The notes: generated by a model not told the origin, from the letters alone. 64,000 bases of DNA from an uncultured candidatus Porisulfidus sp. (GCA_965215765.1 OZ244118.1:1773309-1837308); one strand, 5' to 3'. Positions 29,282 through 59,747 are shown, counted from the first letter of the stretch. A program made the numbers and translations.

Positions 29282-29690
29282 CAGAGATTTCCTCGAGACA
29301 TGTGATAGCGTAGCAGAAAAAAGCGGCTTTACCAACTTTCGCGATTTTCGCACCTTATCATGGTTAAAAATAAATGCGTACTCACAAGAAGGGGTACCCC
29401 CCAATCAATTCTGTTGAGCCAGCACCCGAACAGTACCAAAGGTCAGGCCAAGACATCACCTTCTCATCAGGATGAATGCATAAGTACCCGTACACCGACC
29501 CCCCGGTTTTTTTCCTGACTTGGCAGCCCTGCCTGAAGCCTGCTTTTAGCCAGAAATTTTAAGCTAGCCTCTGTCGGCGGAGCTCCTTCCCCGTTGAAAG
29601 AAGCTGTAAAACCAAGTTCTGGGTGGTTCAAAACATGAGCTCCTACGTGCCTGAAAAAACCTTGCCCGAAACAAGACTGACCATAGACAA
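29282..29690. repeat. conserved ~400-bp intergenic module between adhesin genes (copy 1)
   Basis: Highly similar to 32649-33030 and 37930-38326. Its parts match 22705-22870, 40415-40626 and 40975-40994. Confidence 0.9.
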
Positions 29691-32648: not shown

Positions 32649-33030
32649 CAGCGATTTCCTCGAGACCTCTGACAGCGCAACTGAAAAAAGCGGATTTTCG
32701 CGATTAAAAATAAACGCATACTCACAAGTAAAGGGTACATGCCCCAATCCATCCTGTTGAGTCAGCACCCGAATAGTACCAAGGGTCAGGCTAAGACATC
32801 ACCTTCTCATCAGGATGAATGCATAAGTACCTGTACACCGGCTCCCGGTTTTTTCCTGACTTGGCAGCCCAGCCTGAAGCCCGCTTTTAGCCAGAAATTT
32901 GGGTCAGCCGCTGTCGGCGGTGCTCCTCCCCTGTTGAAAGAAGCTGTGAAACCAAGTTCTGGGTGGTTCAAAACATGAGCTCCTACGTGCCTGAAAAAAC
33001 CTTGCCCGAAACAAGACTGACCATAGACAA
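32649..33030. repeat. conserved intergenic module between adhesin genes (copy 2)
   Basis: Direct sequence similarity to copies 1 and 3. Confidence 0.9.
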
Positions 33031-37929: not shown

Positions 37930-38326
37930 TAACGATTTCCTCAAGGTCTCAAACAGCGCAACTGGAAAAGGCAACTTTACCAACTTTTGCGATTTTCGTG
38001 GTTAAAAATAAATGCGTACTCACAAGAAGGGGTACCCCCCAATCAATTCTGTTGAGCCAGCACCCGAATAGTACCAAAGGTCAGGCCAAGACACCACCTT
38101 CTCATCAGGATGAATGCATAAGTACCCGTACACCGACCCCCGGTTTTTTTCCTGACTTGGCAGCCCTGCCTGAAGCTTGCTTTTAGCCAGAAATTTGGGT
38201 CAGCCACTGTCGGCGGCGCTCCTCCCCCGTTGAAAGAAGCTGTGAAACCAAGTTCTGGGTGGTTCAAAACATGAGCTCCTACGTGCCTGAAAAAACCTTG
38301 CCCGAAACAAGACTGACCATAGACAA
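37930..38326. repeat. conserved intergenic module between adhesin genes (copy 3)
   Basis: Direct sequence similarity to copies 1 and 2. Confidence 0.9.
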
Positions 38327-44967: not shown

Positions 44968-46512
44968 TCAGTGGTGAAAATGACGAATGCCGGTAAATAC
45001 CATAGCAACACCTCGAGCGTCTGCGGTCGCCACAATTTGCTCGTCTCGTTTTGAACCACCCGGCTGAATCACCGCCACCACTCCCGCATCACAGGCAATC
45101 TCCAGGGCATCTGGAAAAGGGAAAAAAGCATCTGAAGCCATGACTGGCGGTGAAACATGCGCTGGCGACTTCTGCACCGCCAATCGCACCGCTTCAACAC
45201 GAGAAGTCTGCCCTCCTCCGATACCAGTTGTACACAGACCACTTGCCAGCACGATCGCATTGGATCTGACGTATTTGGCAACCCGCCAGGCAAACTTCAA
45301 ATCCATCCATTCCGTCTCCGATGGCTGGCATCTGGTTACGCACCGCAATAACTCGCTGTTGAAGTCCACGTCATTTTCTTCCTGAACAAGAACCCCGCCG
45401 GCGACACGGCGATACTGAACCCCCCCGGCATTCGCCGTGGCAGCCACCACACGCAGTGCCGGCTTGGCGGCAAAGCAGTTCAAAGCCTCATCCGCCACGC
45501 TTGGAGCCACGACCAATTCCACAAATTGCCGTGCCAGCACCTCCTGCGCAACAGGCAAGTCAACTGCGTGATTGAATGCGACAATTCCCCCGTAAGCAGA
45601 CTCAGAGTCCGCCTCACAGGCGCGAACATAAGCACCTTGCAAATCTTGAGCGCAGGCCGCACCACACGGGGTCGCATGTTTCACGATCACACAGGCCGCC
45701 TGCTCAAACTGCGACACGCAACGCAAGGCCACATCCATGTCCGCAATGTTGTTAAAAGAAAGATCCTTCCCCCGCAGTTGCACCATGCTCCCTGTGCTGT
45801 TGCAGTCGGCATAAAGCGCACTGGCCTGATGCGGATTCTCACCGTAACGAAGCTCGTTCTTTTTAAGAAACACTGGTGACAAAAACTCCGGAAAAACTTC
45901 GTCTTTTTTTGCGAACCAGTTACTGATTTCAGCATCGTAGCGCGTGGTCACCGCAAAGGCTTTGGCAGCCAGTCTGCGGCGCAAACTGACCGGCAAAGTG
46001 CCGGAATTTTCCTGCAAGGTCTTTTCGATGACCGGGTAGTCTTCCGGATCACTTAATACCGCCACATAACGATGATTTTTCGCACCAGCCCTCAACAGCG
46101 CCACCCCACCAATATCAATATTTTCCAGCGCAGCCTGAAAATCATCCGGGAAGTTCGCCACGGTTTCTGCAAAAGGGTATAAATTCACGACCACCATATC
46201 TATTCCCTGTATTCCCGAAGCTTCCATTTCCGCATGGTGCTGCGCCCGATCCGCCAACAGCCCACCATGAATTTTCGGATGCAGGGTCTTGACCCGCCCA
46301 CCAAAAAATTCCGGGCTACCGGTATAGTCACAAACCTCAACAACTTCGACACCCTCCGCACTCAGCGCCTTGGCGGTCGCCCCGGTTGACAAAATTTCCA
46401 CCCCATGCGCGGAAAGAAAACGCGCGAACGATGCAATCCCTTCCTTGTCCGACACGCTCAGCAAGGCGCGGCGCACAGGGAGAAAATCATCCTGCAAAAC
46501 AGATTTTTTCAT
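44968..46512 (-). CDS. purH: bifunctional AICAR formyltransferase/IMP cyclohydrolase
   Basis: RRALLSVSDK, GGRVKTLHPKIHGG, VNLYPF, IDIGG, LRYGENPHQ, IVKHATPCG, ASDAFFPF, TGIRHFHH. Confidence 0.98.
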   Translation of the reverse strand: MKKSVLQDDFLPVRRALLSVSDKEGIASFARFLSAHGVEILSTGATAKALSAEGVEVVEVCDYTGSPEFFGGRVKTLHPKIHGGLLADRAQHHAEMEASGIQGIDMVVVNLYPFAETVANFPDDFQAALENIDIGGVALLRAGAKNHRYVAVLSDPEDYPVIEKTLQENSGTLPVSLRRRLAAKAFAVTTRYDAEISNWFAKKDEVFPEFLSPVFLKKNELRYGENPHQASALYADCNSTGSMVQLRGKDLSFNNIADMDVALRCVSQFEQAACVIVKHATPCGAACAQDLQGAYVRACEADSESAYGGIVAFNHAVDLPVAQEVLARQFVELVVAPSVADEALNCFAAKPALRVVAATANAGGVQYRRVAGGVLVQEENDVDFNSELLRCVTRCQPSETEWMDLKFAWRVAKYVRSNAIVLASGLCTTGIGGGQTSRVEAVRLAVQKSPAHVSPPVMASDAFFPFPDALEIACDAGVVAVIQPGGSKRDEQIVATADARGVAMVFTGIRHFHH

Positions 46513-46768
46513 AGGAAACAGGCGGAACTCAGCCCGGTTGCAAAACACACAAAAAAGATGAAGCCGGTAGTGTACATTCACCAGCCGCTGAAATCACAAA
46601 CGCTGCCCCGAGGCATCTACGAGCGAAGCCCCTTATTTTTAACCGCGAAAAACGCGAAAGTCAGTATTTGCAGTCCTGCTGCGCAGGTGGGGTAGCAGGT
46701 GGGGTAGAGTAGTCAAAAAATTTTGCCGGGTTTACCAAAGTCATCCTGGGCAACAGGAGGAAGTTAAG

Positions 46769-47359
46769 ATGAAATCCATTTCAGTTGGACTGGCTCTCTT
46801 GGTCGCGGCTTTCGTGCTGCCGGCAGCTTACGGAGGTTCCTCCAAGTCTGCTTCGCCGGAAAACTCTCGAACATTGAACAAAAGTTACGATGATGTGTGG
46901 CGCACTGTTGGCAACTATGTCAGCACCTCCTCATTCGTAATTGATGAATTCGAGAAAGACTCGGGGCTGATCACATTTTCTTTCGGACAAAGCGACATCT
47001 CGAAGTACGTCGATTGTGGGCAGTGGACTGAACCAAAATCCAGGTGGGGTGACTCCGAATCCAGGTTCGAAGGGCACTACGCTGACTATCTTGAGCGCTC
47101 TTCCAAAGGAACCCTGTCAGGAAAGATGAATATTTCTGTTCGAGAGATATCTGAATACAAAACCTCTGTAAAAACCGATGCTCAATATATTCTTACCGCT
47201 TTTTTCTACAACCCTCTAAACTACCTGAATCCTGTCCGAATCACTTGGGGTTTTAGCAGTGGCAGTTACGAAGATGATGGCTATGGTGGTGCCACCCACA
47301 GATGTCAACCCACGTATTTTCTGGAAAAGAGCATCCTGGACGCAGCGTCGTCAGACTAA
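46769..47359 (+). CDS. exported hypothetical protein, lipoprotein-family paralog 1 (lipobox Cys absent)
   Basis: Strong RBS (aggaggaagttaag ATG), hydrophobic signal, conserved SYDDVW/EKDSGLIT/YVDCG/CQPT. Differs from 53672-54262 at 3 residues. Confidence 0.8.
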   Translation: MKSISVGLALLVAAFVLPAAYGGSSKSASPENSRTLNKSYDDVWRTVGNYVSTSSFVIDEFEKDSGLITFSFGQSDISKYVDCGQWTEPKSRWGDSESRFEGHYADYLERSSKGTLSGKMNISVREISEYKTSVKTDAQYILTAFFYNPLNYLNPVRITWGFSSGSYEDDGYGGATHRCQPTYFLEKSILDAASSD

Positions 47360-47431
47360 AACATCCTCCCAACCAATCCTTCTTTGGCTTAAAAATCTTT
47401 GGGTCAGTTGGTCAACGCCAGAAACGTGAGT

Positions 47432-47507
47432 TGGCGCGCCCAGCAGGATTCGAACCTGCGACTTCTGCCTCCGGAGGGCAGCACTCTATCCACTGAGCTA
47501 CGGGCGC
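47432..47507 (-). tRNA. tRNA-Arg(CCG), variant copy with two C>T changes
   Basis: 76-nt cloverleaf with anticodon loop CTCCGGA, GGTTCGAATCC and encoded CCA. The changes create G7:U66 and G10:U25 pairs. Confidence 0.88.
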
Positions 47508-47603
47508 ACAAAAGGGGAGCTTGGCTGATCCACAAGGTGCAAATCCAGGCACATGCAACTAATAGTGAACATTAGGCTCCAAGGTGCTTATAATCAGGAC
47601 TCC

Positions 47604-47858
47604 AATGCGCGGAAAGAAAACGCACGAACGATGCAGCCCACGCCTTGTTCTGCGCGTTCAGCAAAGTGCCCGTACAGAGAGGAAATTATCCTGCAAAGTA
47701 GATTTTTTCATAGGAAATTGGCGGAACTCAGCTTGGTTGCGAAGCACTCTAAAAGACGAAATCAGTAGTGTGCATTTACCGGTCGTTGAAATCACAAACG
47801 CAGCTCCGAGACACCCACAAGCGAAGCCTTTTATTTTTAACCGCGAAAGACGTGAGAA
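47604..47858 (-). repeat. decayed copy of the purH 5' end and upstream region (another at ~54506-54725)
   Basis: atgcgcggaaagaaaacgcacgaacgatgca...gattttttcataggaaa...aaatcacaaacg aligns to 46405-46660. Confidence 0.85.
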
Positions 47859-47941
47859 GAAGGTGCAACCAGAAGAGCCAATGGAATCATCTAAGCAAGG
47901 CACACCTTACTTGGGTAGCCTTCAACACCGGAACCATGAAT

Positions 47942-47974
47942 TGGTGCGCCCGGCAGGACTCGAACCTGCGACTT
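47942..47974 (-). repeat. 33-nt 3' fragment of tRNA-Arg (att-like remnant)
   Basis: tggtgcgcccggcaggactcgaacctgcgactt matches the tRNA 3' end with 2 mismatches; AT-rich cargo starts directly after it. Confidence 0.8.
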
Positions 47975-48070
47975 GTGCAAAACGCGCCTTTTTCGCATAA
48001 GTTTGACCCTGAAAATTATCTTGAAATGCTATGCTACGTTAAATAAAATTAACTTGATTTACTGCTGTTT

Positions 48071-49063
48071 ATGAATTACTTAGAATCATTAAATTCCCTT
48101 TCCCCACAGAATTGTCAAAATGCAGAGTTTGTTGCTCTGGACTTGTTCGCGGGTTGTGGTGGTCTTTCACTGGGTTTTGAGAGTGCTGGAATTAAGACAA
48201 TAGGAATAGAAAAAGATGCCGCCTGCGTTGAAACTTATAAATCAAATTTATCAGGAGATTGCTTCGAACAATTTATTGATACCGACTTTGACTTTCCTTA
48301 TGCGGACATTGTGATTGGAGGACCACCTTGCCAACCATTCAGTGTAGGAGGTAAGCAGCTGGGGCTCAGAGATTCCAGGGATGGGTTCCCAGCTTTCATA
48401 CGAGCAATTGAACAGTTAAGACCTCGCATTTTTATTATTGAGAATGTCCGCGGCATGAAGTTCAGAAGTAGGTCTTATTTTGGTGAAGTTTTAAAATCTC
48501 TATCCAAATTGAATTACGATATTCAATATGAGATTCTAAACGCAAAGATGTACGGAGTTCCACAAAATAGAGAACGCCTATTTGTTGCCGCCACCAAGAA
48601 TACTCGGTTCGAATTTCCAGCCCCAGAGGCGCATGTTTACTCAGCGCGTGACGCTATTGCAGATACTGCTTTTAATTATGGTGCCGACGACATTTTCCTT
48701 ACCTCAAGTCAGGATGCCTACGTCGCGAAGTACGAGAAAGCATCGAAATGTGTCAATCCGCGTGACCTTAATTTAGACAAGCCCGCTCGAACGCTTACAT
48801 GCCGTAATCTTGCGGGTGCAACTGGAGACATGCATAGATTATTAATGCCTGATGGTAGAAGGAGGAGGTTATCCGTCAGGGAGAGTGCCCGTCTACAGAG
48901 TTTTCCTGATTGGTTCAGATTCTCAGGAACCAAGGCTTCTCAATTTTACCAAATTGGGAACGCAGTTCCTCCAGTCCTGTCTTATAAATTTGGTGTTAAA
49001 GTTTTGGATGCACTTTACGGCAGGAGTGGTAATTCAAGAAGACAGTTACCGTTGAAAATATAG
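48071..49063 (+). CDS. DNA (cytosine-5) methyltransferase of a type II R-M system
   Basis: DLFAGCGG, GGPPCQPFS, IENVRG, GVPQNRERLF, RESARLQSFPD, QIGNAVPP; AT-rich. Confidence 0.95.
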   Translation: MNYLESLNSLSPQNCQNAEFVALDLFAGCGGLSLGFESAGIKTIGIEKDAACVETYKSNLSGDCFEQFIDTDFDFPYADIVIGGPPCQPFSVGGKQLGLRDSRDGFPAFIRAIEQLRPRIFIIENVRGMKFRSRSYFGEVLKSLSKLNYDIQYEILNAKMYGVPQNRERLFVAATKNTRFEFPAPEAHVYSARDAIADTAFNYGADDIFLTSSQDAYVAKYEKASKCVNPRDLNLDKPARTLTCRNLAGATGDMHRLLMPDGRRRRLSVRESARLQSFPDWFRFSGTKASQFYQIGNAVPPVLSYKFGVKVLDALYGRSGNSRRQLPLKI

Positions 49064-50025
49064 TGGATACAAAAAAGAAAAAGAAAGTTGAAGAGGCAAT
49101 TCAAGTTCTCATTGAATTAGGTATGCCAAAAGAACAGCAAAATGACCGCTCAGCACTTTGTTTGCTGGCACTCCTGAATTTACCGGAAAATGTAGCTTGG
49201 TCTAATTCTGGCAGGCCCATGTTGGGTGTCACTCCAATTATGGAGTGGATAAAAAAATACTATGAAACGACTTACGCGCCAAACACCAGGGAGATCTTTA
49301 GAAGACAGACGCTACACCAGTTTATGGAAGGTAGCATCGTTGAGTATAATCCTGATGACCCGGGACGCCCTGTTAACAGCCCTAAGGCGTGTTATCGGAT
49401 CACCGAAGAGACCCATAATTTGCTGACCCAATATGGATCAGCGAGTTGGAGAAAAAGCGCGAAGCAATGGAAAGGAAATAAAAGAACGCTTTCGCAAAAA
49501 TACGCACAGGAAAGAAACCTAAATAAAGTTCCCGTCTCATTTCAAGGTAGGCAGGTACTGCTCAGCCCTGGCGTTCATAGCAAGTTAATAGAGACAGTTG
49601 TGTCAGAATTTGGTTCTAGATTTGCGCCAGGAGCAATTGTAGTTTATCTCGGTGATACAGGCGCAAAGCAAGAACTTCTTGACCAAAAAACATTACTATC
49701 GCTTGGAATGAAGGTTGCTAAAAAAGGAAAACTGCCTGATGTGGTTTTATACCTTGAAGACAAGAATTGGTTATTTCTTATTGAGGCGGTAACAAGTCAT
49801 GGCCCGATTGATGAGAAACGATTACAAGAACTAAAAAATTTATTTGGCGATTGTCTGGCGAATTTGGTTTTTGTTAGTGCGTTTTCAGACAAACAGACGA
49901 TGGCTAAGTATATGCCTCAGTTGGCATGGGAAACCGAGGTGTGGATTTCTGAGGCTCCAAGCCACATGATACACTTTAACGGGGAAAAATTCCTGGCTTC
50001 TTATTCATCCGGCGGGCAATCCTGA
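49063..50025 (+). CDS. BsuBI/PstI-family type II restriction endonuclease
   Basis: YAPNTREIFRRQTLHQF, RPVNSPK, LSPGVHSKL, YLGDTG, GKLPDVV, IEAVTSHGP, LAWETEVW, HMIHFNGEKFL. The start overlaps the MTase stop. Confidence 0.92.
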   Translation: MDTKKKKKVEEAIQVLIELGMPKEQQNDRSALCLLALLNLPENVAWSNSGRPMLGVTPIMEWIKKYYETTYAPNTREIFRRQTLHQFMEGSIVEYNPDDPGRPVNSPKACYRITEETHNLLTQYGSASWRKSAKQWKGNKRTLSQKYAQERNLNKVPVSFQGRQVLLSPGVHSKLIETVVSEFGSRFAPGAIVVYLGDTGAKQELLDQKTLLSLGMKVAKKGKLPDVVLYLEDKNWLFLIEAVTSHGPIDEKRLQELKNLFGDCLANLVFVSAFSDKQTMAKYMPQLAWETEVWISEAPSHMIHFNGEKFLASYSSGGQS

Positions 50026-50929
50026 CTTGCAATTCCCGCTATTTTGCGATAAAGCAAAACTGTTTGACGAAGCCATCTATTCAAGGATTTCCCAAAAAAT
50101 TCAATTCTTCAACCACTGTTTTTAGATTTCATATCGGGTCTTTCACTTGTTAAAGACCCCAACACGTGAAAGAGGTGTATAAGAACTATTCTGTCTTCCT
50201 GATTAAATCTACCTGCTCGCAAATATCTTTAAAACCGCCTTGTGTTTTTTCATATATTCTTCCAAGTCATCTAACGGTTTCTCCTTGAATTTCTGTCGTG
50301 TAGGCTTGAAATGTCTTGCAGCACCATTTCAATGTTTCTTTGCATTACGAGGAATACAAGAAGAGCACTTTTACGAATGAGACGGGACTCATTTAGTTCT
50401 TCTGGTTCCGGGATCTGTTTTTGGAGGAGTAATTGGCTGGCATCTTTGTCCACTTACAAACTCTGCAATGCAAAAGGTTGGCTAAAATGTAAAAGACGAT
50501 TCGTGATGGTTCAGCAACTCGCATGTCCAAGACTATATTCCACGGGCAGAGCAGTTCCATTTGACTGTGTAAAGGCCGTTCACGTTGAGAGCCAAGTGGC
50601 AGTCTGGCGTACTCTGCACATTGTCTTTGGCTCCTGTTTCACTGACGGCCAGAGCGAATACTTTAAAATTTATGAAATACTAACAAGCCTGCTTTTGAAG
50701 CAACTTGACCATGAAGCGGCACCCTACAGGCTAATAATAAGAATAAAGCAATTGATGCGTAGTCTCGCGAGGCGGCAAAGTGACTTTCATTCAGGAAACC
50801 GACCCTGAACTTTGCTGGAATGTCTATCCTGACTAACTCTGTTCTTGCAGCGGTCAATTTTAACCACACACCTGAGGTTTCTGACCCGGAGAAGCCACCT
50901 TCCGTGATAAAAACCAGAAGGAAGTTAAG

Positions 50930-51653
50930 ATGAAATTAATTTCAGCTGGATTGGTTCCCTTGGTCGCAACTTGGCATCCACGCATCGTACCGGCATGGAT
51001 GTCTTGTACAAGGCTGCTTCGGGAGGTCTGAACGCCATGCCACCCAGAGTGGCCGCACGGGCTTGCCTGATGCTGACATAAAAGTAGCAGTGGATTACAT
51101 GATTCAATCCGCACTTGAAACAGCCACAGATGCAGGCGTAGGAAGCGTGACCAAAAAGACCAAGACCGCTGGCGCAACATGCCTGCCGGCTCCCCGGAAA
51201 ACTCTATGCCGGCTGAATTGGGAACGCCGGAATACTCTCGAACATTGAACAAAAGTTACGATGAGGTGTGGCGTACAGCTGCGAAGCTACGTCAGTGCCT
51301 CCTCATTCGCAATTGATGATTTCGAGAAAGACTCGGGTCTGATCACATTTTCTTTCGGGCAAAGCGACATCTCGAAGTACGTCGATTGTGGGCAGTGGAC
51401 TGAACCCGAATCCAAGTTCGAAGGACACTACGCTGACTATCTTGGGTGCTCTTCCAAAGGAACCCTGTCAGGAAAGATGAATATTTCTGTTCGACAAATA
51501 TCTGAAAACAAAATCTCCGTAAAGGTTAATGCTCGGTATGCCTTTAGTGCCTTTTCATCTGAAAGTGGCAACCTTGACGAAGTTAATGGCTTCAGGTGCC
51601 GACCCACTTATGTCCTCGAAAAAGGCATCTTGGACGCAGTGTCGTCGAACTAA
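50930..51653 (+). pseudogene. disrupted lipoprotein-family paralog containing an inserted, decayed cytochrome c5 fragment (~50977-51172)
   Basis: gaagttaag ATG AAA TTA ATT TCA GCT GGA start, then sequence homologous to the 58911-59747 gene (...LPDADIKVAVDYM...), then a frameshifted lipoprotein body (FAIDDFEKDSGLITFSFGQSDISKYVDCGQ). Confidence 0.82.
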
Positions 51654-51924
51654 AACCCCTTCCCAACTGACCACTCTTTGGCTTAAAAATCTTTGGGACT
51701 GTTGGTCAACGCCAGAAACGTGAGCTGGCGCACCTGAGCGGAGAAAGCTCAAGCACCCTGTTTGACATTCTCGCTCAATGGAATCAGGTGCTGGCTGCCA
51801 TTCAAAAACCTGCAAATGGCTCCTTACGTGACATTTGCGGGGTAGCTTGATGACAAAAAAGACGCCACTCTTCTCCTTCAAACTGATTTTTGAAGAACGC
51901 GCCCAGCTTAAAGAGTTCACCGGA

Positions 51925-52050
51925 GACACGCCGTTCTGGATCGAGTTATCGACAAACCACGCAGGCAAACCAGGATTTGTAATTAAGATGGGGGAGATTG
52001 GATAGAACAATAACGCCGGGTCGGATATTTACGGAGTTAACCTGAGCCAT
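51925..52050 (-). pseudogene. truncated, frameshifted N-terminus of a GHKL/MORC-like ATPase
   Basis: ATG overlaps the dcm stop: MAQVNSVNIRPGVIVLSNLPHLNYKSWFA-[shift]-AWFVDNSIQ, matching the LNYxxWxALAEFVDNS N-box pattern. Confidence 0.65.
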
Positions 52051-53351
52051 TACTTCACCTCGGCTACTACAGTTTCTGTGGTCTCAAGGCCGGTTCGCTT
52101 TGTCAGAGCGTCAAAGATGTTCAAAACCACATCAACATTGACCGCGTTTCCAAGCACCTTGTACGCATCGTTCTTCGAGTCTGGAAGGTGTTTAAGTCCG
52201 CCCATACTTTGCAGTCGGCTGCATTCGCGTGGTGTCATGTAACGCTTTTGCGATGCCGCTATCGGCACCTGGCTGGTGGTCATCGCGATAAGCGATGGGG
52301 CAGTGTCTTCCCTCTTCACGCGGATGCCGCTTGCCCGGAATTGAAGCAGGTGCTTCCAAATATTCCGCTCGCTGCCTTTGCAGTTCCATTCAAGCTTCTG
52401 GAAACTCGGCGGAAAACCCCTGATCTTGTGTAGCCAGCCATCGATCTGATCCTGATGACGGTCGTAAAAACACCGGTTCTTTTGAATGAAGCTAATCTTC
52501 CAGTCGGGGAACTTGTCCATCTCCGTTCGGGCATAGCCAGGAAGCGCATCCTTAACAACCTCGGGTGACAAGCTTTTAAGGGGTTGCCCGAATGCACCCT
52601 TGAAAACATCCAGCCCTGTATAGCCGCGCTTGTGGGGTGTCAAGCCGTCAAGCGGGTAGTCAGCCCCGAATTCCATTGCCCAGATAGGAAATGACGGAAG
52701 GTCTTCGTTCACTGGAAAGGCTGCGATGAATTCCTGCCAGGTTTCGAGATAAGCGATGTGTTTTTCATTCAGCGTGTGCTCATCTTCGGGGTCTTTATCA
52801 AGGATTGTGTGTATTGACGTCTCCGGAAAAGCGTCCGGCACCGGCCACTTGAACCCACTCAGCCCCTGTCGATCACCGACGATGAAGGCGCGCTCCCGTT
52901 TTTGCGGAATCCCGAACATATGGGGGGACAATTTCTCATGGCTTATGTCGTAGTCCTCACGAAGTTGAGAACACACGGTTTTCCACGTCTCACCCCCCTT
53001 ATGCTTTATCAGATTTGGCACATTTTCGATGATGAAATAGCGCGGCTGCTTGAGCGTCAGGATCTTGACAACATAGTCAAAGAGATCTCCCCATTGTGGG
53101 CATTCCAATCCCTTTTGATCTCCTGCTTTGGAGAAAGGCTGGCATGGAAAACCTGCGCAAAGAACGTCGTGCTCGGGAATAGACGAAGGGTGGACATCGC
53201 GAATATCGCGGTGCGCCCGAATGCCGAAGTTCTTTTCGTATAGGCTTGAAAGATGAGTGTTGAGTTCGGACGCAAAAACGCACTCCGCTCCGCGCTTAAT
53301 TAACGCTTGATGAAAACCGCCTAGGCCAGCGAAAAGATCAATGAATTTCAT
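52050..53351 (-). CDS. DNA (cytosine-5) methyltransferase, now orphan
   Basis: FIDLFAGLGGF, LCAGFPCQPFSKAG, IENVPNL, GIPQKRERAF, QFRASGIRVK, TPRECSRLQ, LGNAVNV. Confidence 0.95.
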   Translation of the reverse strand: MKFIDLFAGLGGFHQALIKRGAECVFASELNTHLSSLYEKNFGIRAHRDIRDVHPSSIPEHDVLCAGFPCQPFSKAGDQKGLECPQWGDLFDYVVKILTLKQPRYFIIENVPNLIKHKGGETWKTVCSQLREDYDISHEKLSPHMFGIPQKRERAFIVGDRQGLSGFKWPVPDAFPETSIHTILDKDPEDEHTLNEKHIAYLETWQEFIAAFPVNEDLPSFPIWAMEFGADYPLDGLTPHKRGYTGLDVFKGAFGQPLKSLSPEVVKDALPGYARTEMDKFPDWKISFIQKNRCFYDRHQDQIDGWLHKIRGFPPSFQKLEWNCKGSERNIWKHLLQFRASGIRVKREDTAPSLIAMTTSQVPIAASQKRYMTPRECSRLQSMGGLKHLPDSKNDAYKVLGNAVNVDVVLNIFDALTKRTGLETTETVVAEVK

Positions 53352-53671
53352 TTAACTGGATTACCCGACTTTTCCATTCATCATACACTCGCAAGTTGAA
53401 AGCTAGTACAGGCAAGGCACCGGTTCTCAACTCACAAGGTTCTGTAAACAGCAGTGTTTACGCGGAAAGAAGGTGCAGTCAGGAAGGTCGCTGAAATCAC
53501 AAACGCTGCCCCGAGGCATCTACGAGCGAAGCCCCTTATTTTTAACCGCGAAAAACGCGAAAGTCAGTATTTGCAATCCTGCTGCGCAGGTGGGGTAGCA
53601 GGTGGGGTAGAGTAGTCAAAAAATTTTGCCGGGTTTACCAAAGTCATCTTGGGCAACAGGAGGAAGTTAAG

Positions 53672-54262
53672 ATGAAATCCATTTCAGTTGGACTGGCTCT
53701 CTTGGTCGCGGCTTTCGTGTTGCCGGCAGCTTACGGAGGTTCCTCCAAGTCTGCTTCGCCGGAAAACTCTCGAACATTGAACAAAAGTTACGATGATGTG
53801 TGGCGCACTGTTGGCAACTATGTCAGCACCTCCTCATTCGTAATTGATGATTTCGAGAAAGACTCAGGTTTGATCACATTTTCTTTCGGACAAAGCGACA
53901 TCTCGAAGTACGTCGATTGTGGGCAGTGGACTGAACCAAAATCCAGGTGGGGTAACTCCGAATCCAGGTTCGAAGGGCACTACGCTGACTATCTTGAGCA
54001 CTCTTCCAAAGGAACCCTGTCAGGAAAGATGAATATTTCTGTTCGAGAGATATCTGAATACAAAACCTCTGTAAAAACAGATGCTCAATATATTCTTACC
54101 GCTTTTTTCTACAACCCTCTAAACTACCTGAATCCTGTCCGAATCACTTGGGGTTTTAGCAGTGGCAGTTACGAAGATGATGGCTATGGTGGTGCCACCC
54201 ACAGATGCCAACCCACGTATTTTCTGGAAAAGAGCATCCTGGACGCAGCGTCGTCAGACTAA
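53672..54262 (+). CDS. exported hypothetical protein, lipoprotein-family paralog 2 (lipobox Cys absent)
   Basis: Near-identical to 46769-47359, within a ~1 kb direct repeat (about 46586-47591 vs 53489-54494). Confidence 0.8.
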   Translation: MKSISVGLALLVAAFVLPAAYGGSSKSASPENSRTLNKSYDDVWRTVGNYVSTSSFVIDDFEKDSGLITFSFGQSDISKYVDCGQWTEPKSRWGNSESRFEGHYADYLEHSSKGTLSGKMNISVREISEYKTSVKTDAQYILTAFFYNPLNYLNPVRITWGFSSGSYEDDGYGGATHRCQPTYFLEKSILDAASSD

Positions 54263-54334
54263 AACATCCTCCCAACCAATCCTTCTTTGGCTTAAAAATC
54301 TTTGGGTCAGTTGGTCAACGCCAGAAACGTGAGT

Positions 54335-54410
54335 TGGCGCGCCCGGCAGGATTCGAACCTGCGACTTCTGCCTCCGGAGGGCAGCGCTCTATCCACTGAG
54401 CTACGGGCGC
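54335..54410 (-). tRNA. tRNA-Arg(CCG)
   Basis: GCGCCCGTAGCTCAGTGGATAGAGCGCTGCCCTCCGGAGGCAGAAGTCGCAGGTTCGAATCCTGCCGGGCGCGCCA. Confidence 0.95.
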
Positions 54411-54823
54411 ACAAAAGGGGAGCTTGGCTGATCCACAAGGTGCAGATCCAGGCACATGCAACTAATAGTGAACATTAGGCTCCAAGGTGCTTATAGCCGG
54501 GATTCCATTACGCGAAAAGAAAACTCACGAACGATACAGCCCCAGCCTTGTTCAGCTCGTTCAGCAAGGTGCACGCGCAGAGAGAAAATTATCCTGCAAA
54601 AAGACGAAATCGGTAGTGTGCATTTACCAGTCGCTGAAGTCACAAACGCTGCTCCGAGACACCCACAAGCGAAGCCTTTTATTTTTAACCGCGAAAGGCG
54701 CAAAAATCGTGAAAATCGGTATTTGCAACCCGGTTGTGTAGTCGTGATTAGTAGATAGTGTAAAGTAGCTGAAAATTTTTGCCAAGTTTCCCAAGGTCAC
54801 CTGAGCGTTAGGAGGAAGTTAAG

Positions 54824-55477
54824 ATGAAATACATTTTAGTTGGATTGGTTCTTTTGGTCGCAGCTTGCGGAGGTTACGCCAATCCTGCCCTGTCGGAATA
54901 CTCTATGCCTGCTGAATCGAAAACGCCGGAGTATTTTCGAACTTTGAACAAAAGTTATGATGATGTGTGGCACTCTGTTATCAACTACGTCAGTGCTACG
55001 TCATTCGCAATTGATGATTTCGAGAAAGAATCGGGTCTAATCACACTTACTTTCGGGCAGAGTGACATCTCCAAGTATGTCGATTGTGGGCAGTTGAACA
55101 TAACAAAGCACGAGTATAATACAGCCGGTTTCGCGACCAAAATGAAGTTTGAAGGGAGCTACACTGACTACCTTGTGAGCTACTCTGACGCTACCCTATC
55201 GGGAAAGATGAATATTTCTGTAAGAGAGGTGTCTGAAAACAAATCTTGGCTGTTTTTCGGAGACGACAAAACCTATGTAAGGGCTAATGTTCTGTATATT
55301 CTTAGAGCTTCCCCCCTTTTTAGTTCTTTTTCCTACACTTGGAATTTTGTTAGTGGTAGCAGTGATATAGAAACGAGAGGATATGATGACACCATCAACT
55401 ATGGCACTGACGTCATCAAGTGCCAGCCTACATATTTTCTGGAAAAAAGCATTTTGGACGCTGCGACGGCAAACTAA
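54824..55477 (+). CDS. lipoprotein, diverged paralog 3 (intact lipobox VAAC)
   Basis: MKYILVGLVLLVAA|CGG lipobox; same RBS and core motifs as paralogs 1 and 2. Confidence 0.82.
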   Translation: MKYILVGLVLLVAACGGYANPALSEYSMPAESKTPEYFRTLNKSYDDVWHSVINYVSATSFAIDDFEKESGLITLTFGQSDISKYVDCGQLNITKHEYNTAGFATKMKFEGSYTDYLVSYSDATLSGKMNISVREVSENKSWLFFGDDKTYVRANVLYILRASPLFSSFSYTWNFVSGSSDIETRGYDDTINYGTDVIKCQPTYFLEKSILDAATAN

Positions 55478-55603
55478 GACACCCTTACAGCCAATCCCTC
55501 TTTGGCTTAAAAACCTTTGGAGCTGTTAGTCGACGCCAGAAACATGGGGCAGCTTCTCAAAATCGCGGCAGACGCATGGCTAAAAAAACGGAGGTCTAAT
55601 TAA

Positions 55604-56470
55604 GTGGGAACATCAAGTCGATATATTGGCCCTAAACACGGGGTGGATGATGAACCTGCTGATGGAAGAGGCACCCCCAACCCTACGCCGACTGCTACGG
55701 GCGCAGGAAACGGAGGCGATGCTGGAGCAGACAAAATCGCTGCGCCGAATAACGTGGCACTTGGCACGTCTTCGCTGCCCATAGCACTCGCCTCCCAGCC
55801 AACGGTTCCGTTCAGTAAGGCAAGACGTGATTTCACAAGGTTCACGAAAACAGGGGACAAGCAGGCACTTTTCCGTGCAATTTCAGGGTACGTTAAGAGT
55901 TCAGGCGGTTTAAGAGGTGTCCTTCGTAGGATGCGGAGTTCAATCAAAATCGCACTTGGCTTCGCTTCGCTTGCTTTGAGTTTCGCGCGAGTTGGACCAG
56001 TGGAAGCACTACGCCGCTTCAAGCTACAGGACTTGGCTGGGAAGCCTGCGTCCGAAGTCTTCGAACGATTGGTAGATGAACTCTGTCATGAAGGTGGCAC
56101 GCTTGACGAAGCCGTGGCTCGAAATGCCTTTATCGACATCATCAAAGCATTTGCCGAGCAGGAAGTTGTCAATTTCGATCAGCTGACACCATATCTAATG
56201 AAGGAACTCCTTGCCGAATTGATAACTAACTGCATCGTCAGTAAGGTGCTCAGCGAAATCGGGACGAACAGCCTACATAGTTCGGCGAATGATAATCTTT
56301 GCCGCAAAGCTGAAGCCGCACTGAGAAAACATACGTCTGATGCGGTTTGCAGCAAACTCGTGGCTCCTCTTGATCCCTCCACATCCGCAGAGAGACTAGA
56401 AGCCATTATCAGTGAGATTTTCGTAGCATCTTTTGATACCCTTCAGTCGGGGTTGGAGGAGAAGTCCTGA
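55604..56470 (+). CDS. qatB: Qat anti-phage system protein QatB
   Basis: MGTSS..GP N-terminus, P/A-rich linker, FSKARRDFTRF, GGTLDEAVARNA; directly upstream of QueC-like and TatD genes. Confidence 0.78.
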   Translation: MGTSSRYIGPKHGVDDEPADGRGTPNPTPTATGAGNGGDAGADKIAAPNNVALGTSSLPIALASQPTVPFSKARRDFTRFTKTGDKQALFRAISGYVKSSGGLRGVLRRMRSSIKIALGFASLALSFARVGPVEALRRFKLQDLAGKPASEVFERLVDELCHEGGTLDEAVARNAFIDIIKAFAEQEVVNFDQLTPYLMKELLAELITNCIVSKVLSEIGTNSLHSSANDNLCRKAEAALRKHTSDAVCSKLVAPLDPSTSAERLEAIISEIFVASFDTLQSGLEEKS

Positions 56471-56490
56471 AAGGAGCCAAGAAATATGAG

Positions 56491-57828
56491 TTGTGTGTGA
56501 GGCTCGGAGAACACGATGATCCGCCTACAAGCGTTATCAAAGACCTCGAAAACGTCAAGTACCTCGATCTTATTGATACGACCGGCAAACTCGGCTGTGG
56601 CGTCGGAAAGTTCATCCAATCGCTAGAGAAGCACGGTGGATCGCTTGAAGAGTCCGCTGTTGATCTGCTGGTCGTTGCCTTAGCGGTCGACCTGTGCGAC
56701 AAAAGTTTCTCACGCCGTGAGACCTATGATCGATGGACCAGAGACTTCTTGGTGTACATCCCTGTCTCTGATCCCTCGCTATGGACGGATGCAACCGAGC
56801 ATTTATCCAAGATGCTCAAGTTTCTGACGGGTGATTCTTGGTCATTCAAGTTCAGGCCGCGTCCCGACAAACATGGGCAACTTACCGAGGAACAAAGGAA
56901 GCTCGATCTTACCGCATACCATCAAGTGTCACTGTTTTCCGGAGGACTCGACAGTCTCATTGGAGCCATCAACCTAATCACCAAAGGCGAAAAACCACTA
57001 CTCATCGCCCACTACTGGGATGTCCAGACGGCATCAGCACAAAAAGACTTGCGCGCCGAAATGAAGAAAAAATTTGGGGGGAACTCCTTTGCGATAGTTC
57101 GCGGGCGTATTGGTGCAGACAAAGTTGTTCTGGAAGGCGCAGGGTCGGAAAACACACACCGCTCACGGAGCTTCTTGTTCTACTCGATGGCGGCGGCGGC
57201 GGCGACCCTGCCAACCACGAATACTGTATTGATACCGGAAAACGGGTTTATCGCTTTGAATGTACCTATGGAACGTATGCGACTAGGGGCATTGAGCACC
57301 CGTACCACCCACCCGCACTTTATTGGCTGCATGAACAGCTTAACCACCTCCATTGGAGTTCCGGCTGACTTTTCGAATCCTTATCGCTTCAAGACGAAGG
57401 GAGAAATGGCCGCAGAATGCGCCGACCGAGATTTCCTCTTTCAGGTATCCAAACATTCGATGTCCTGCTCCTCCTCCGGGAAAGCATGTTGGCATAAAAA
57501 GCCACCGCAGCACTGCGGATACTGTGTGCCATGCCTGATCCGGCGTGCAGCACTGTTGGCTGGGTTGTCGGGTAAAGATCCCACAGATTACCTTCTGCAA
57601 GATCTGAGGGAAAAGGCTTGGGATTCGAGAAAAGCCAAAGGTCGTGACATCCGCTCGTTTCTTTTTGCTTCGCGGACAATTATGAGAGCACCAAGAAAAG
57701 CAAAGTTTTTTGTAAGGAAACCCGGACCCCTGCCCGCAGATGACGTGGAGAAGTATGCCAGAATGTACCGGCGTGGTATGGCTGAAGTTGCCAAACTCCT
57801 GAAAGGCGTGAGGTCAGGTGGTGGATGA
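56491..57828 (+). CDS. qatC: Qat anti-phage system QueC-like protein QatC
   Basis: PP-loop LFSGGLDS, RSRSFLF, PENGFIALNVP, STRTTHP, NPYRFKTKGEM, HCGYCVPCLIRRAA. An in-frame CTG at 56467 may be the real start. Confidence 0.9.
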   Translation: MCVRLGEHDDPPTSVIKDLENVKYLDLIDTTGKLGCGVGKFIQSLEKHGGSLEESAVDLLVVALAVDLCDKSFSRRETYDRWTRDFLVYIPVSDPSLWTDATEHLSKMLKFLTGDSWSFKFRPRPDKHGQLTEEQRKLDLTAYHQVSLFSGGLDSLIGAINLITKGEKPLLIAHYWDVQTASAQKDLRAEMKKKFGGNSFAIVRGRIGADKVVLEGAGSENTHRSRSFLFYSMAAAAATLPTTNTVLIPENGFIALNVPMERMRLGALSTRTTHPHFIGCMNSLTTSIGVPADFSNPYRFKTKGEMAAECADRDFLFQVSKHSMSCSSSGKACWHKKPPQHCGYCVPCLIRRAALLAGLSGKDPTDYLLQDLREKAWDSRKAKGRDIRSFLFASRTIMRAPRKAKFFVRKPGPLPADDVEKYARMYRRGMAEVAKLLKGVRSGGG

Positions 57829-58636
57829 TCTGAATCTCGTCGATTTTCACTGCCATCTCGATCTTCATCAAGATATGGAAGCAGCCTTCCGACGCTGTGA
57901 CGAGATCGGATGCACAACATTTACCGTGACGACAACTCCGAGAACCTATCCTCGCAATATTGAGTTCGCGAACCGCACGGATCACGTCAAAGCTGCACTG
58001 GGTCTTCATCCGCAATTAGTCGCAAAACTGGGCAAAGAGATCGCTCTTTTTGAGGAGTTAGCGAAGACGACTCAGTGCATCGGAGAAATTGGACTCGACG
58101 CAAGCCGAGCTCACTACGCATCATTCGAACAACAAAGAGAGGTCTTCGAAAAGGCACTACTAATTTGCGCATCACAGGGTGAGAAAGTGATCAGCATTCA
58201 CAGTGTCAGGTGTGCCCGACAGGTTCTGGACTATATCGAGGCAACAGCAGTTTTCCAGTCTAATGTCGTTGTCCTTCATTGGTTTTCTGCGAGCAAAACG
58301 GAACTTAAAAGGGCTATCGATCTTGGCTGTTGGTTCTCAGTAAACGAACAAATGTTGAAATCAGTGTCCGGGCAAAATGTGGTGGCAATGTCTCCCCGGG
58401 ATCGGCTTCTCACGGAGACAGACGCTCCGTTTATACGGGTCGGGGACAGACTCGCTCGTGGGGGCGAAGTTCGAGGTGCGCTGAAAAAGATCGCCGAAAT
58501 ATGGGGGCAAGACATCGGTGCTGTAGCTGCCAAAATAGTTGCCAATGCAAAAAATGCTCTCGGCTGCGTGAGAAACCAAGCTTGTGTAATATCCCAAAGG
58601 ACAGTCTCTGCGATGCGGCGGACGGCCACTTTGTAA
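57818..58636 (+). CDS. qatD: Qat anti-phage system TatD-family nuclease QatD
   Basis: VDFHCHLDL, TVTTTP, ALGLHPQL, IGEIGLD, SIHSVR, VLHWFS, LLTETDAPF. Confidence 0.9.
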   Translation: MVDDLNLVDFHCHLDLHQDMEAAFRRCDEIGCTTFTVTTTPRTYPRNIEFANRTDHVKAALGLHPQLVAKLGKEIALFEELAKTTQCIGEIGLDASRAHYASFEQQREVFEKALLICASQGEKVISIHSVRCARQVLDYIEATAVFQSNVVVLHWFSASKTELKRAIDLGCWFSVNEQMLKSVSGQNVVAMSPRDRLLTETDAPFIRVGDRLARGGEVRGALKKIAEIWGQDIGAVAAKIVANAKNALGCVRNQACVISQRTVSAMRRTATL

Positions 58637-58707
58637 CGAGATCTCCACTTAGGTTTGAAATTGTTAACCCGGCGAAGCAAGCATTGTCACTTAAATTCTT
58701 GAAAAAC

Positions 58708-58783
58708 TGGCGCGCCCGGCAGGATTCGAACCTGCGACTTCTGCCTCCGGAGGGCAGCGCTCTATCCACTGAGCTACGGGCGC
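58708..58783 (-). tRNA. tRNA-Arg(CCG), probable native copy
   Basis: Identical to 54335-54410; its upstream flank continues into the cytochrome c5 intergenic region. Confidence 0.95.
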
Positions 58784-58910
58784 ACAAAAGGGGAGCTTGG
58801 CTGATCCACAAGGTGCAGATCCAGGCACATGCAACTAATAGTGAACATTAGGCTCCAAGGTGCTTATAATCAGGGCTTCATTATAACCTTCGTGACAGGA
58901 GTCTTTCTTT

Positions 58911-59747
58911 ATGGATGACAAACATTTTTACCAGCAGTTTTCTGTTCTGGTGGTTTTCATGATCGTAACAGTGGCAGTGATTCTCATCATTGCTCGCTTG
59001 CTTAGTGGCGGGCCTGGCAATATCAGCGTCATGCAGACTATGGCAATTGAGGAACGGATCAAGCCATTGGGGTCGGTCTTTACGGGCGTACCCCCGGTAG
59101 CAAAAGCTTCGGCTCCCGGCAGTGCGGTTGCTGCTGCGGGACAGGGAGGTGCCGGGGTTGGCAAAAGTACTTATGAGCAGGTGTGTGCTGCGTGCCATGT
59201 CAGTGGTGTCGCCGGTGCTCCGAAGTTTGGCGACAAAGCGGCCTGGGAACCTCGTATCGCTACGGGCATGGGTACCTTGTACAAGGCGGCTTTGGAAGGT
59301 CTGAACGCCATGCCTGCCAAGGGTGGCCGTACGGACTTGCCTGATGCCGACATAAAAGCGGCAGTGGATTACATGGTTCAAGACGTACATGGAACAGCGA
59401 CCGATGCAGACGCAGGAAGCATGGCTGAAAAGAAGGTCGCAGGCGCAGGAAGCATGGCTGAAAAGAAGGTAGCTGCCGCTGCGCCGACCACAGCAGCAGG
59501 GGGTTCAAAAAAAGGCAAAGAGACCTACACTCAGGCTTGCTCCGTATGCCATGCCGCTGGCATCGCCGGTGCTCCGAAGTTTGGCGACAAGGTGGCTTGG
59601 CAGCCACGCATCGCTACCGGCATGGCCGCCATGTACAAGGCGGCTTTGGAAGGTCTGAACGCCATGCCTCCCAAGGGTGGCCGCACGGACTTGCCTGATG
59701 CCGACGTAAAAGCGGCAGTGGACTACATGGTCAAAGCCGCGCAGTAA
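58911..59747 (+). CDS. membrane-anchored diheme cytochrome c5
   Basis: N-terminal TM, ERIKPLG, two c5 domains (CAACH, CSVCH; GAPKFGDK.AW.PRI; NAMP.KGG). The linker has a 33-bp tandem duplication (AGSMAEKKVAx twice). Confidence 0.92.
   Translation: MDDKHFYQQFSVLVVFMIVTVAVILIIARLLSGGPGNISVMQTMAIEERIKPLGSVFTGVPPVAKASAPGSAVAAAGQGGAGVGKSTYEQVCAACHVSGVAGAPKFGDKAAWEPRIATGMGTLYKAALEGLNAMPAKGGRTDLPDADIKAAVDYMVQDVHGTATDADAGSMAEKKVAGAGSMAEKKVAAAAPTTAAGGSKKGKETYTQACSVCHAAGIAGAPKFGDKVAWQPRIATGMAAMYKAALEGLNAMPPKGGRTDLPDADVKAAVDYMVKAAQ

Follow-up and report, generated by a model that had tools for sequence, protein, structure and literature searches.

Site-specific integrases are the usual explanation for defence islands at tRNA genes, and defence systems are also said to gather at hot spots between conserved core genes, as reported by Makarova 2011 and in hot-spot studies of E. 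coli, Pseudomonas and Vibrio. An integron comprises IntI, attI, promoterless cassettes bounded by attC, and a Pc promoter. Integrative elements of the ICESt1 type accrete in tandem at tRNA 3' ends and decay to integrase-less CIMEs, as described in the excerpt of the source used here (PMC5704250), and the tycheposon islands of Prochlorococcus grow beside a tRNA by repeated use of the site (excerpt of 10.1101/2020.12.28.424599). According to the same excerpts, a tRNA is restored when an element integrates into its 3' end, and the known route of growth is tandem accretion at a single tRNA. Here we describe an array between purH and a c-type cytochrome gene, two housekeeping genes of an uncultured symbiont-like bacterium (candidatus Porisulfidus sp.) with a single-contig 3.0-Mb genome (G000). 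The window, that is, the whole stretch analysed, is G000:C1:1773309-1837308 (64,000 nucleotides), and all positions are given in its numbering unless marked as genome positions. With moderate confidence, we read the purH–cytochrome c interval as a defence island that is linked to tRNA-Arg(CCG) and stands on a scaffold duplicated in tandem.

A segment of ~1.2 kb, with one end inside purH and the other shortly before the cytochrome gene, was joined head to tail by one illegitimate event, which we call junction J. On this reading, the scaffold would have been multiplied by the general tandem-duplication process of the genome. Later unequal recombination or gene conversion, together with deletions, would have given five partial units with three intact tRNAs. 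The defence modules would have entered separately at a hot spot, the boundary between a spacer and the tRNA 3' end. The restriction-modification (R-M) module may have entered via a classical tRNA-targeting integrase, leaving a displaced 37-nt tRNA 3' fragment, and the Dcm and Qat modules would now end in deletion or illegitimate junctions. The present-day array would be reshuffled only by homologous recombination between repeats.

A first-pass annotation of the window had described the region as five successive versions of one unit and had proposed a self-comparison. Self-BLAST and a repeat finder show dense direct repeats there, far above chance level by self-BLAST. The tandem repeats are therefore real, but they are not five full versions: the repeated segment of ~1.2 kb runs purH–lipoprotein–tRNA–cytochrome, and the array contains five partial copies of it, with three intact tRNAs, one tRNA 3' fragment of 37 nt and a remnant of 9 nt. 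A purH scrap, an exported-protein gene and a cytochrome-upstream scrap had been assigned to every unit; the purH scrap is present in units 2 and 5 only, unit 2 has no lipoprotein gene, and the cytochrome-upstream scrap occurs in units 1 and 4 only.

The self-BLAST pairs include 46586-47697 with 53489-54600 (97.1% identity over 1112 bp), 46552-47428 with 54598-55546 (68.7%, 967 columns), 46854-47172 with 51225-51523 (85.9%), 46402-46657 with 47602-47855 (80.5%) and 47432-47604 with 58708-58880 (97.1%). The segments 54335-54495 and 58708-58868 are 100% identical over 161 bp, which is the length of the tRNA and a further 85 nt. Units 1 and 4 are 98.6% identical over 46590-47589 (about 14 of 1000 positions differ), and the similarity falls sharply at J. 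On the minus strand, ARAGORN places the intact tRNA-Arg(CCG) genes at 47432-47507, 54335-54410 and 58708-58783, with Rfam scores of 66.7, 72.6 and 72.6 bits, respectively; by eye, two substitutions set the first copy apart from the others.

Units 1 and 4, both on the plus strand, count as complete units; they are empty and have whole tRNAs by ARAGORN and Rfam, as the first-pass annotation had it. Unit 1 (46586-47601) consists of an upstream region holding a 31-44-nt motif, the lipoprotein gene exp1 (46769-47359), a spacer, tRNA-Arg(CCG) and a cytochrome-upstream scrap (47508-47601). Unit 4 (53456-54504) consists of an upstream part, exp4 (53672-54262), a spacer, tRNA-Arg(CCG), a cytochrome-upstream scrap and the second J. 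The other three units, likewise on the plus strand, are more reduced. Unit 2 is a remnant (47602-47978) with no exp gene, made up of a frameshifted purH scrap plus upstream part (47602-47855), a decayed spacer (47856-47941) and a tRNA 3' fragment (47942-47978); the last two had been recognized from the start, but the fragment is 37 nt long rather than 33. Unit 3 (50915-51734) is a broken chimera without the purH scrap and without the upstream part. It begins at the exp ribosome-binding site, continues with the signal peptide (together 50916-50973), the rest of exp (51195-51653) and a spacer, and ends in the previously reported 9-nt tRNA end, TGGCGCACC, at 51726-51734. A cytochrome c fragment of ~200 bp (50970-51176) lies inside its lipoprotein gene, and is 80-86% identical to 59244-59447, to 59596-59740 and to the cytochrome of G001, the nearest genome in our collection. 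The left part of unit 5 (54505-55546) consists of a purH scrap plus upstream part (54505-54823), the lipoprotein gene exp5 (54824-55477; divergent, yet intact) and a spacer to 55546, and has a GC content of 43.9% versus 49%. Its scrap carries a 1-nt deletion, as does the unit 2 scrap, plus a 55-nt deletion. The order given for this unit, spacer, qatBCD and then an intact tRNA, holds; the third tRNA-Arg(CCG) and the native upstream region of the cytochrome gene together occupy 58708-58880 on the minus strand (ARAGORN, Rfam, self-BLAST). The 31-nt core of what had been called a 44-bp motif is found at eight genome sites at up to five mismatches, mostly intergenic: four in the window, at 47828 and 54676 on the plus strand and at 37984 and 40478 on the minus strand, and four more elsewhere in the genome.

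Junction J, at which cytochrome-upstream DNA is fused to an internal piece of the purH 5' part, is found at 47601/47602 and again at ~54504/54505. G001 is a 1.92-Mb metagenome-assembled genome labelled Candidatus Oxydemutatoraceae, a group of Gammaproteobacteria placed under Chromatiales in the NCBI taxonomy, and G002 is a second congener. In G001 the order is purD-purH-exp-tRNA-Arg-cytochrome-map-aminotransferase, with one empty unit, and in G002 purH is followed by ~90 bp, tRNA-Arg and the cytochrome gene, with no exp. The comparison across relatives that had been suggested thus finds one tRNA and an empty interval in both congeners. J is a head-to-tail junction that straddles gene ends, leaves a purH scrap and is absent from both sister genomes, as for a gene-boundary tandem duplication. 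In G002 (locus L015:2592-4491), the last ~54 codons of purH are repeated between purD and purH, in eight tandem copies of 249 bp that each contain a TGA.

Since the 1-nt deletion, a frameshift, is common to both purH scraps, J arose once and was then copied. Over 37 codons, purH and the unit 2 scrap differ at 10, 7 and 4 sites in codon positions 1, 2 and 3, respectively, compared with 2, 4 and 12 between purH and the functional gene of G002 over the same codons (Fisher p=0.004); the corresponding count for the unit 5 scrap is inflated by a misaligned start. This pattern suggests that the scraps are neutrally decayed copies of a lineage-like purH, ~20% diverged.

Duplication of this kind extends over the whole genome. 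Local repeats of G000, counted as high-scoring segment pairs (HSPs) of at least 250 bp, number 5064 direct and 6 inverted, fall into 120 clusters with 63-100% identity within clusters, and cover 44.9% of the genome; the census was made by 40-kb chunks and hence counts only repeats within about 40 kb, and many of those counted are paralogous giant genes and within-gene repeats. In ten 40-kb samples, the covered fraction is 11.6% in G001 (81 direct, 0 inverted) and 48.1% in G000 (784 direct, 0 inverted), and duplication probably accounts for much of the extra ~1 Mb of G000 relative to the 1.9-Mb G001. A tRNA is listed in 12 of the 120 clusters. Since duplication is genome-wide, unit amplification is not specific to tRNAs; the original proposal that the host unit with its tRNA had been amplified is right in that the amplification is real and congeners have one empty copy, but the process is a genome-wide habit. 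Another local repeat cluster in the window is formed by three large paralogous open reading frames (ORFs) of 2177, 1025 and 1650 aa on the minus strand (22871-37983); it spans genome positions 1796023-1813934, with 50 HSPs at 64-94% identity. At 2.44-2.59 Mb, some 12 genes of ~3500 aa each form an array of 148 kb.

The interval qualifies as a defence island: an R-M pair, a methyltransferase and QatBCD lie between flanks that are the same in G001 and G002, where no cargo is present. The defence identities are supported by PADLOC, and all three cargo blocks are unique within G000. Cargo 2 (47979-50914, plus strand; GC 42%), annotated as an R-M pair and identified as such by Pfam and PADLOC, comprises a C5 methyltransferase gene (48071-49063; PF00145, 2e-61), a restriction endonuclease gene of the BsuBI/PstI family (49063-50025; PF06616 and PF17728, 6e-56 and 2e-49) and an 884-bp tail. 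The two genes are adjacent, overlap at 49063 and are predicted by Pfam and PADLOC to form a type II system. The GC content of the R-M genes is 42% and their GC3 0.37-0.40, compared with 0.54 and 0.55-0.62 in core genes; judged by composition, the block is foreign. The tail (50031-50914) contains only broken frames, with no Pfam family at E≤1, and we discarded a weak PADLOC match to PDC-S57 (2e-7) in it, which falls on an implausible plus-strand ORF.

Cargo 3 (51735-53455, minus strand) holds an orphan C5 methyltransferase gene, the annotated dcm, at 52050-53351 on the minus strand (Pfam/PADLOC), and a 315-bp remnant (51735-52049) that adjoins the tRNA remnant and is assigned to no family. The ATPase stub annotated earlier was not confirmed: the segment 51735-52010, inside this remnant, has no Walker A motif in six frames and no match in Pfam, NCBIfam or PADLOC.

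Cargo 5 (55547-58707, plus strand) consists of a 57-nt open frame, qatB (55604-56470), qatC (56491-57828) and qatD (57818-58636), with PADLOC E-values of 7e-53, 4e-153 and 3e-93 for QatB, QatC and QatD. The insert begins 57 nt upstream of qatB, where qatA would lie, and has no tRNA remnant at its edge. The open frame, which ends at the start of qatB, is possibly a qatA tail; as a candidate for this, the 18-codon frame was rejected, its similarity to the C-terminus of QatA from G244, a distant relative with a complete qatABCD, being non-significant (375 of 2000 shuffles). Of the four-gene operon QatABCD, then, QatB, QatC and QatD are strong and QatA was not found in G000 with the queries used: the QatA protein of G244 gave no match, and KAP_NTPase gave no more than a weak hit, at 166 kb. 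QatB here starts V/M-G-T-S, and in the excerpt of the source cited, QatB has a conserved MGTS start and QatB plus QatC alone protect against some phages (10.1101/2025.09.03.674047). Because QatB and QatC are intact and QatBC is reported there to suffice, the predicted QatBCD module may still be working without qatA. No relative with the R-M or Qat cargo at close identity was found in searches of class and order genomes: QatC occurs in 4 of 400 other genomes of the class, with 50% identity at best, and the endonuclease in 9 of 52 other genomes of the order, at up to 54% identity (up to 50% if full-length) and in none of the genus.

The claim that each cargo starts at the tRNA 3' end stands as far as the spacer/tRNA-3' boundary is concerned, but the left edges are offset from the tRNA 3' end by 37, 9 and 0±2 nt in units 2, 3 and 5, respectively, and only one of the three has an att-type scar. 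The unit 2 fragment is identical to the tRNA at 34 of 37 positions, with a local alignment score of 62 that was reached by none of 2000 shuffles. No further tRNA remnant was detected after this fragment (785 of 2000 shuffles score as high), beyond the 9 nt of unit 3 (1040 of 2000), or, at a significant level, at the edge of unit 5 (1276 of 2000). A direct repeat of the tRNA 3' end flanking the element was thus seen for cargo 2 alone (37 nt, 34/37). Cargo 5 abuts the 3' terminal base of an intact tRNA, at 58708, as expected of insertion at a tRNA 3' end. On sequence grounds, then, one cargo edge of three is an att-type scar, and the other two are deletion-type edges. Such ends are used as att sites in nature, as seen in viral contigs: the 28-nt 3' end of the tRNA was found there at 20 loci, 12 of them without a full tRNA, and one contig has this 28-nt sequence at each of its two ends; the exact 37-nt end has no match in viral contigs.

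The first-pass annotation had taken the array as a set of landing pads, in which amplification of the tRNA unit makes fresh attB sites that are loaded in trans by tyrosine-integrase islands and later trimmed to defence genes, the integron-like array being selected for that. Three intact tRNAs with three different cargoes at the spacer/tRNA boundary, the classical displaced 37-nt fragment and the use of this tRNA-Arg 3' end as a provirus att site are all in keeping with this model. However, duplication is not required for new landing sites, because integration into the tRNA 3' end by itself restores the tRNA, and with it attB, in the excerpts cited above (PMC5704250; 10.1101/2020.12.28.424599). 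In addition, att scars are missing from two of the three cargo edges, no tRNA, downstream scrap or J follows cargo 2 or cargo 3, so that extra deletions would be required, and duplication is genome-wide, with a tRNA in only a minority of the clusters.

As had been noted, there is no integrase in the array: no recombinase domain was found in any tested array ORF (Pfam), nor in the array by six-frame genome scans. The proposed genome-wide search for a trans-acting tyrosine integrase gave no candidate island integrase in G000 with PF00589 and PF00239. Matches to PF00589 occur at 239-254 kb and 1704 kb alone, with none in the window, and comprise two full-length tyrosine recombinases (321 and 332 aa) and split or decayed scraps; matches to PF00239 occur at 1.17 Mb only, and are two small resolvases far from the array. 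The array is not an integron either. It has no IntI, its modules are blocks of one to three genes in mixed orientation (dcm on the minus strand, R-M and qat on the plus strand), and no attC-like hairpins were found at cargo borders by an inverted-repeat scan: the three inverted-repeat pairs in 47600-59000 are all within cargo 2. The idea of an integron-like array was accordingly dropped, and these absences count against the landing-pad model as well, which we consider improbable.

Other tRNA loci of G000 bear on the same question. Five further tRNA loci, in addition to tRNA-Arg, are duplicated within 0.4-5.4 kb. Defence cargo supported by profile hidden Markov models, with no integrase match, was found at three of the four examined (Ser-TGA, Met and Ser-CGA); tRNA-Val is a plain 367-bp tandem copy with no cargo. 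The loci with defence cargo are in favour of landing pads. What speaks against landing pads is that the cargo of the Ser(TGA) and Met arrays is placed at the unit borders, 450-770 nt away from the tRNA, instead of at the tRNA 3' end.

At tRNA-Ser(TGA), unique DNA in or beside the array holds genes for ZorA, ZorB and ZorE of Zorya II, next to the duplicated tRNA (G000 1736635-1739479; L039:9636-12480), ZorE matching profile positions 106-279 only. Diverged direct repeats of host flank, ~310 bp long, stand on both sides of the block, and the site is uninterrupted in G001. The tRNA-Met array has a ThsB-like TIR protein and a TPR-S/MAP3K_TRAF_bd protein between two diverged units (G000 2632789-2634547; L041:7790-9548), and past the second unit a PD-Lambda-4_A protein (1280 aa) and an XendoU-LTD protein (G000 2639283-2644893; L041:14284-19894), with tRNA-Met 3' fragments beyond. 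The three-unit array at tRNA-Ser(CGA) contains an N6/N4 methyltransferase-HNH fusion (G000 2885273-2886553; L042:8274-9554), as well as a diverged pseudo-copy and a tRNA fragment of 77-82 nt.

The repeated gene exp encodes a lipoprotein-like product that is assigned to no family and falls in unnamed lipoprotein clusters of the Atlas. Weak BamC-like signals come from Pfam (Lipoprotein_18, E 0.006) and from the predicted structure (pLDDT 78), whose top Foldseek matches are to BamC (E≥6e-3, TM 0.25). The lipobox Cys is kept in exp5, in the G001 orthologue and in other relatives; in exp1 and exp4 it is replaced by Phe, and these copies are therefore probably not lipidated. The gene is present in 3 of 41 related genomes, G000 included. 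Searches for relatives gave 3 loci in genome contigs, of which G001 alone is close, and 14 loci in metagenome contigs, all at up to 36% identity. In 4 of 16 loci with distant homologues (30-38% identity), many of these loci being short contigs, exp is within 700 nt of tRNA-Val, -Pro, -Lys or -Met. Since it adjoins different tRNAs in other taxa, exp behaves as tRNA-island cargo, not as a core gene. The dS values are 0.046 for exp1-exp4, 0.40 for exp1-G001, 0.83 for exp5-exp1 and 0.72 for exp5-G001, with omega near 0.33 for every pair that includes exp5 or the G001 gene; for the flanking core genes of G000 and G001, dS is 0.24-0.34.

Several observations weigh against a scaffold duplicated in place. 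Judging from these distances, exp5 would be much older than J permits if unit 5 arose in place, and in a protein tree it groups with a protein from another assembly (93/94 support); together with the low GC content of unit 5, this placement suggests that part of the unit may be imported or anciently paralogous. The cytochrome fragment in unit 3 calls for one more duplication junction, unseen and since lost, that extended into the cytochrome gene. The cargo edges of units 3 and 5, at 0-9 nt from the tRNA end, are closer to it than random deletions predict and are unaccounted for. Finally, the comparison with congeners covers two genomes, and short unitigs show neither the order nor the number of units on one molecule.

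Part of this evidence points to a different origin, in which the diverged units are the same locus from other strains or lineages, brought in with their cargo, so that the array stacks alternative alleles of the hot spot. Such units could have come as flanking DNA caught by transient tRNA-integrating elements (in a specialised-transduction-like, tycheposon-style manner), or as circularised fragments integrated via a single crossover in the conserved tRNA. In favour of import, exp5 branches outside exp1 and its G001 orthologue (dS 0.72-0.83 versus 0.24-0.40) and pairs with the protein from another assembly, unit 5 is low in GC, and the 161-bp direct repeat flanks unit 5 plus Qat as a single crossover would leave it. 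Relative to G002, moreover, the upstream-exp-spacer block is an insertion of ~800 bp at the tRNA 3' end, the Zorya block at tRNA-Ser(TGA) lies between diverged host-flank repeats at a site uninterrupted in G001, exp-family genes stand near different tRNAs, and few young copies are seen in the identity spectrum of the local repeats. A model of tRNA islands that gather flanking DNA is also given in the excerpt of 10.1101/2020.12.28.424599. Against import, the purH scraps of units 2 and 5 resemble decayed purH of the own lineage, with few third-position changes and a shared frameshift, and J arose once, not once per import. Furthermore, no donor genome with these units was found in searches of genome and metagenome contigs and of class and order genomes, and no driving integrase was found in the genome. 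We regard import as possible but doubtful as an account of the array. The array is a mixture of old in-place duplication, recent copying or conversion, and at least one component, exp5, which is anciently paralogous or imported.

A bolder and less likely reading is that the array works as an integrase-free, homology-driven set of cassettes. In a genome with a high rate of head-to-tail duplication, copies of the tRNA and its flank might serve as portable homology arms. RecA-type recombination could then suffice for strains to stack, lose and exchange alternative contents of the hot spot (R-M, Dcm and Qat here; Zorya II, a Thoeris-like TIR pair and PD-Lambda-4 elsewhere), in the same way at several tRNA loci.

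Alternatively, variants of one locus from co-existing strains might have been strung together during metagenome assembly, since the sample is metagenome-sized, strain variants are visible in the reads, and the order and number of units are beyond the reach of short unitigs. We consider such an artefact highly improbable. Four short-read runs from one sample contain the stretch, and their unitigs bridge every unique junction (47600-51263, 51662-52559, 52786-53518, 54680-56201 and 56648-58874). J joins cytochrome-upstream DNA to a frameshifted, decayed purH scrap, which the simple locus of no strain would contain. The divergences between units, 68-86% identity, far exceed strain level, CheckM-type contamination of G000 is 0.77%, and sister genomes have similar arrays. 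In the four runs, unit 5 together with Qat has ~0.5-0.7 of the unitig depth of R-M and Dcm, depth not being copy number; as a lead only, the Qat unit may be polymorphic. A loose end at 54678 in all four runs is explained by the 31-nt motif with its eight genome sites, and is not a structural variant.

The core genes on either side of the array are, by Pfam, purD and purH on one side and a dihaem c-type cytochrome gene, map and an aminotransferase gene on the other. The real purH gene (AICARFT/IMPCHase) occupies 44968-46581 on the minus strand, and is supported by Pfam and by 92% amino acid identity to purH of G001. Its start is likely the ATG near 46512, and its first ~111 nt are the origin of the purH scraps. 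The dihaem cytochrome gene (58911-59747, plus strand), the right core flank, has two Cytochrome_CBB3 domains (Pfam) and is syntenic with G001 and G002. Its haem domain is duplicated internally with a 354-bp period (59160-59385 versus 59514-59739, 83-88% identity), and G002 (locus L015 6721-7578) matches this repeat at three places ~318 bp apart.

The island described here is built on a tRNA segment of the host itself, repeated in tandem, with no island integrase found in the genome, and at least three further tRNA loci of G000 combine duplicated tRNA units with defence cargo. If the unit copies do serve as homology arms, a bacterium without mobile-element recombinases could still gather and shuffle immune modules, and the genome-wide duplication habit would be linked to immune diversity. 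If they do not, it remains a well-documented case of a tRNA island that accreted and decayed, in an unusual genome prone to duplication.

Compared with the known systems, the array resembles integrons in outcome only, with small adaptive modules lined up at a single site. Unlike integrons, it has neither IntI nor attC-like hairpins at its borders, it carries multi-gene operons in both orientations, and its repeats are host segments of 0.2-1.2 kb. As in core-gene hot spots, defence systems are clustered between two conserved genes, purH and the cytochrome gene, at a site that is empty in relatives, but here the flanks themselves are amplified inside the island. J is like the gene-boundary tandem duplications of this genome in that it begins in a gene 5' end, stops upstream of the next gene and leaves both flank genes intact; it differs from the others in being larger (1.2 kb), in containing a tRNA and a gene, and in having later taken foreign cargo. 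With tycheposon islands, as characterized in the excerpt cited, the array shares growth beside a tRNA through repeated use of the site, partial tRNAs, decayed elements, flanking DNA of other hosts and the feature that most island DNA has no integrase; unlike in tycheposons, no tycheposon-like integrase or replication genes were seen in G000, and the purH scraps look home-grown. With CIME accretion, to the extent covered by the cited excerpt, it shares serial cargo blocks at one tRNA 3' end, no integrase left, and a displaced tRNA fragment (37 nt here), but whole tRNAs and up to 1.2 kb of host flank are repeated here, rather than att cores only, and two of the three blocks have no att repeats. 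Tandem accretion with CIMEs and tycheposon-type islands are the closest known systems, and the array is mostly explainable as a variant of tRNA-linked defence islands.

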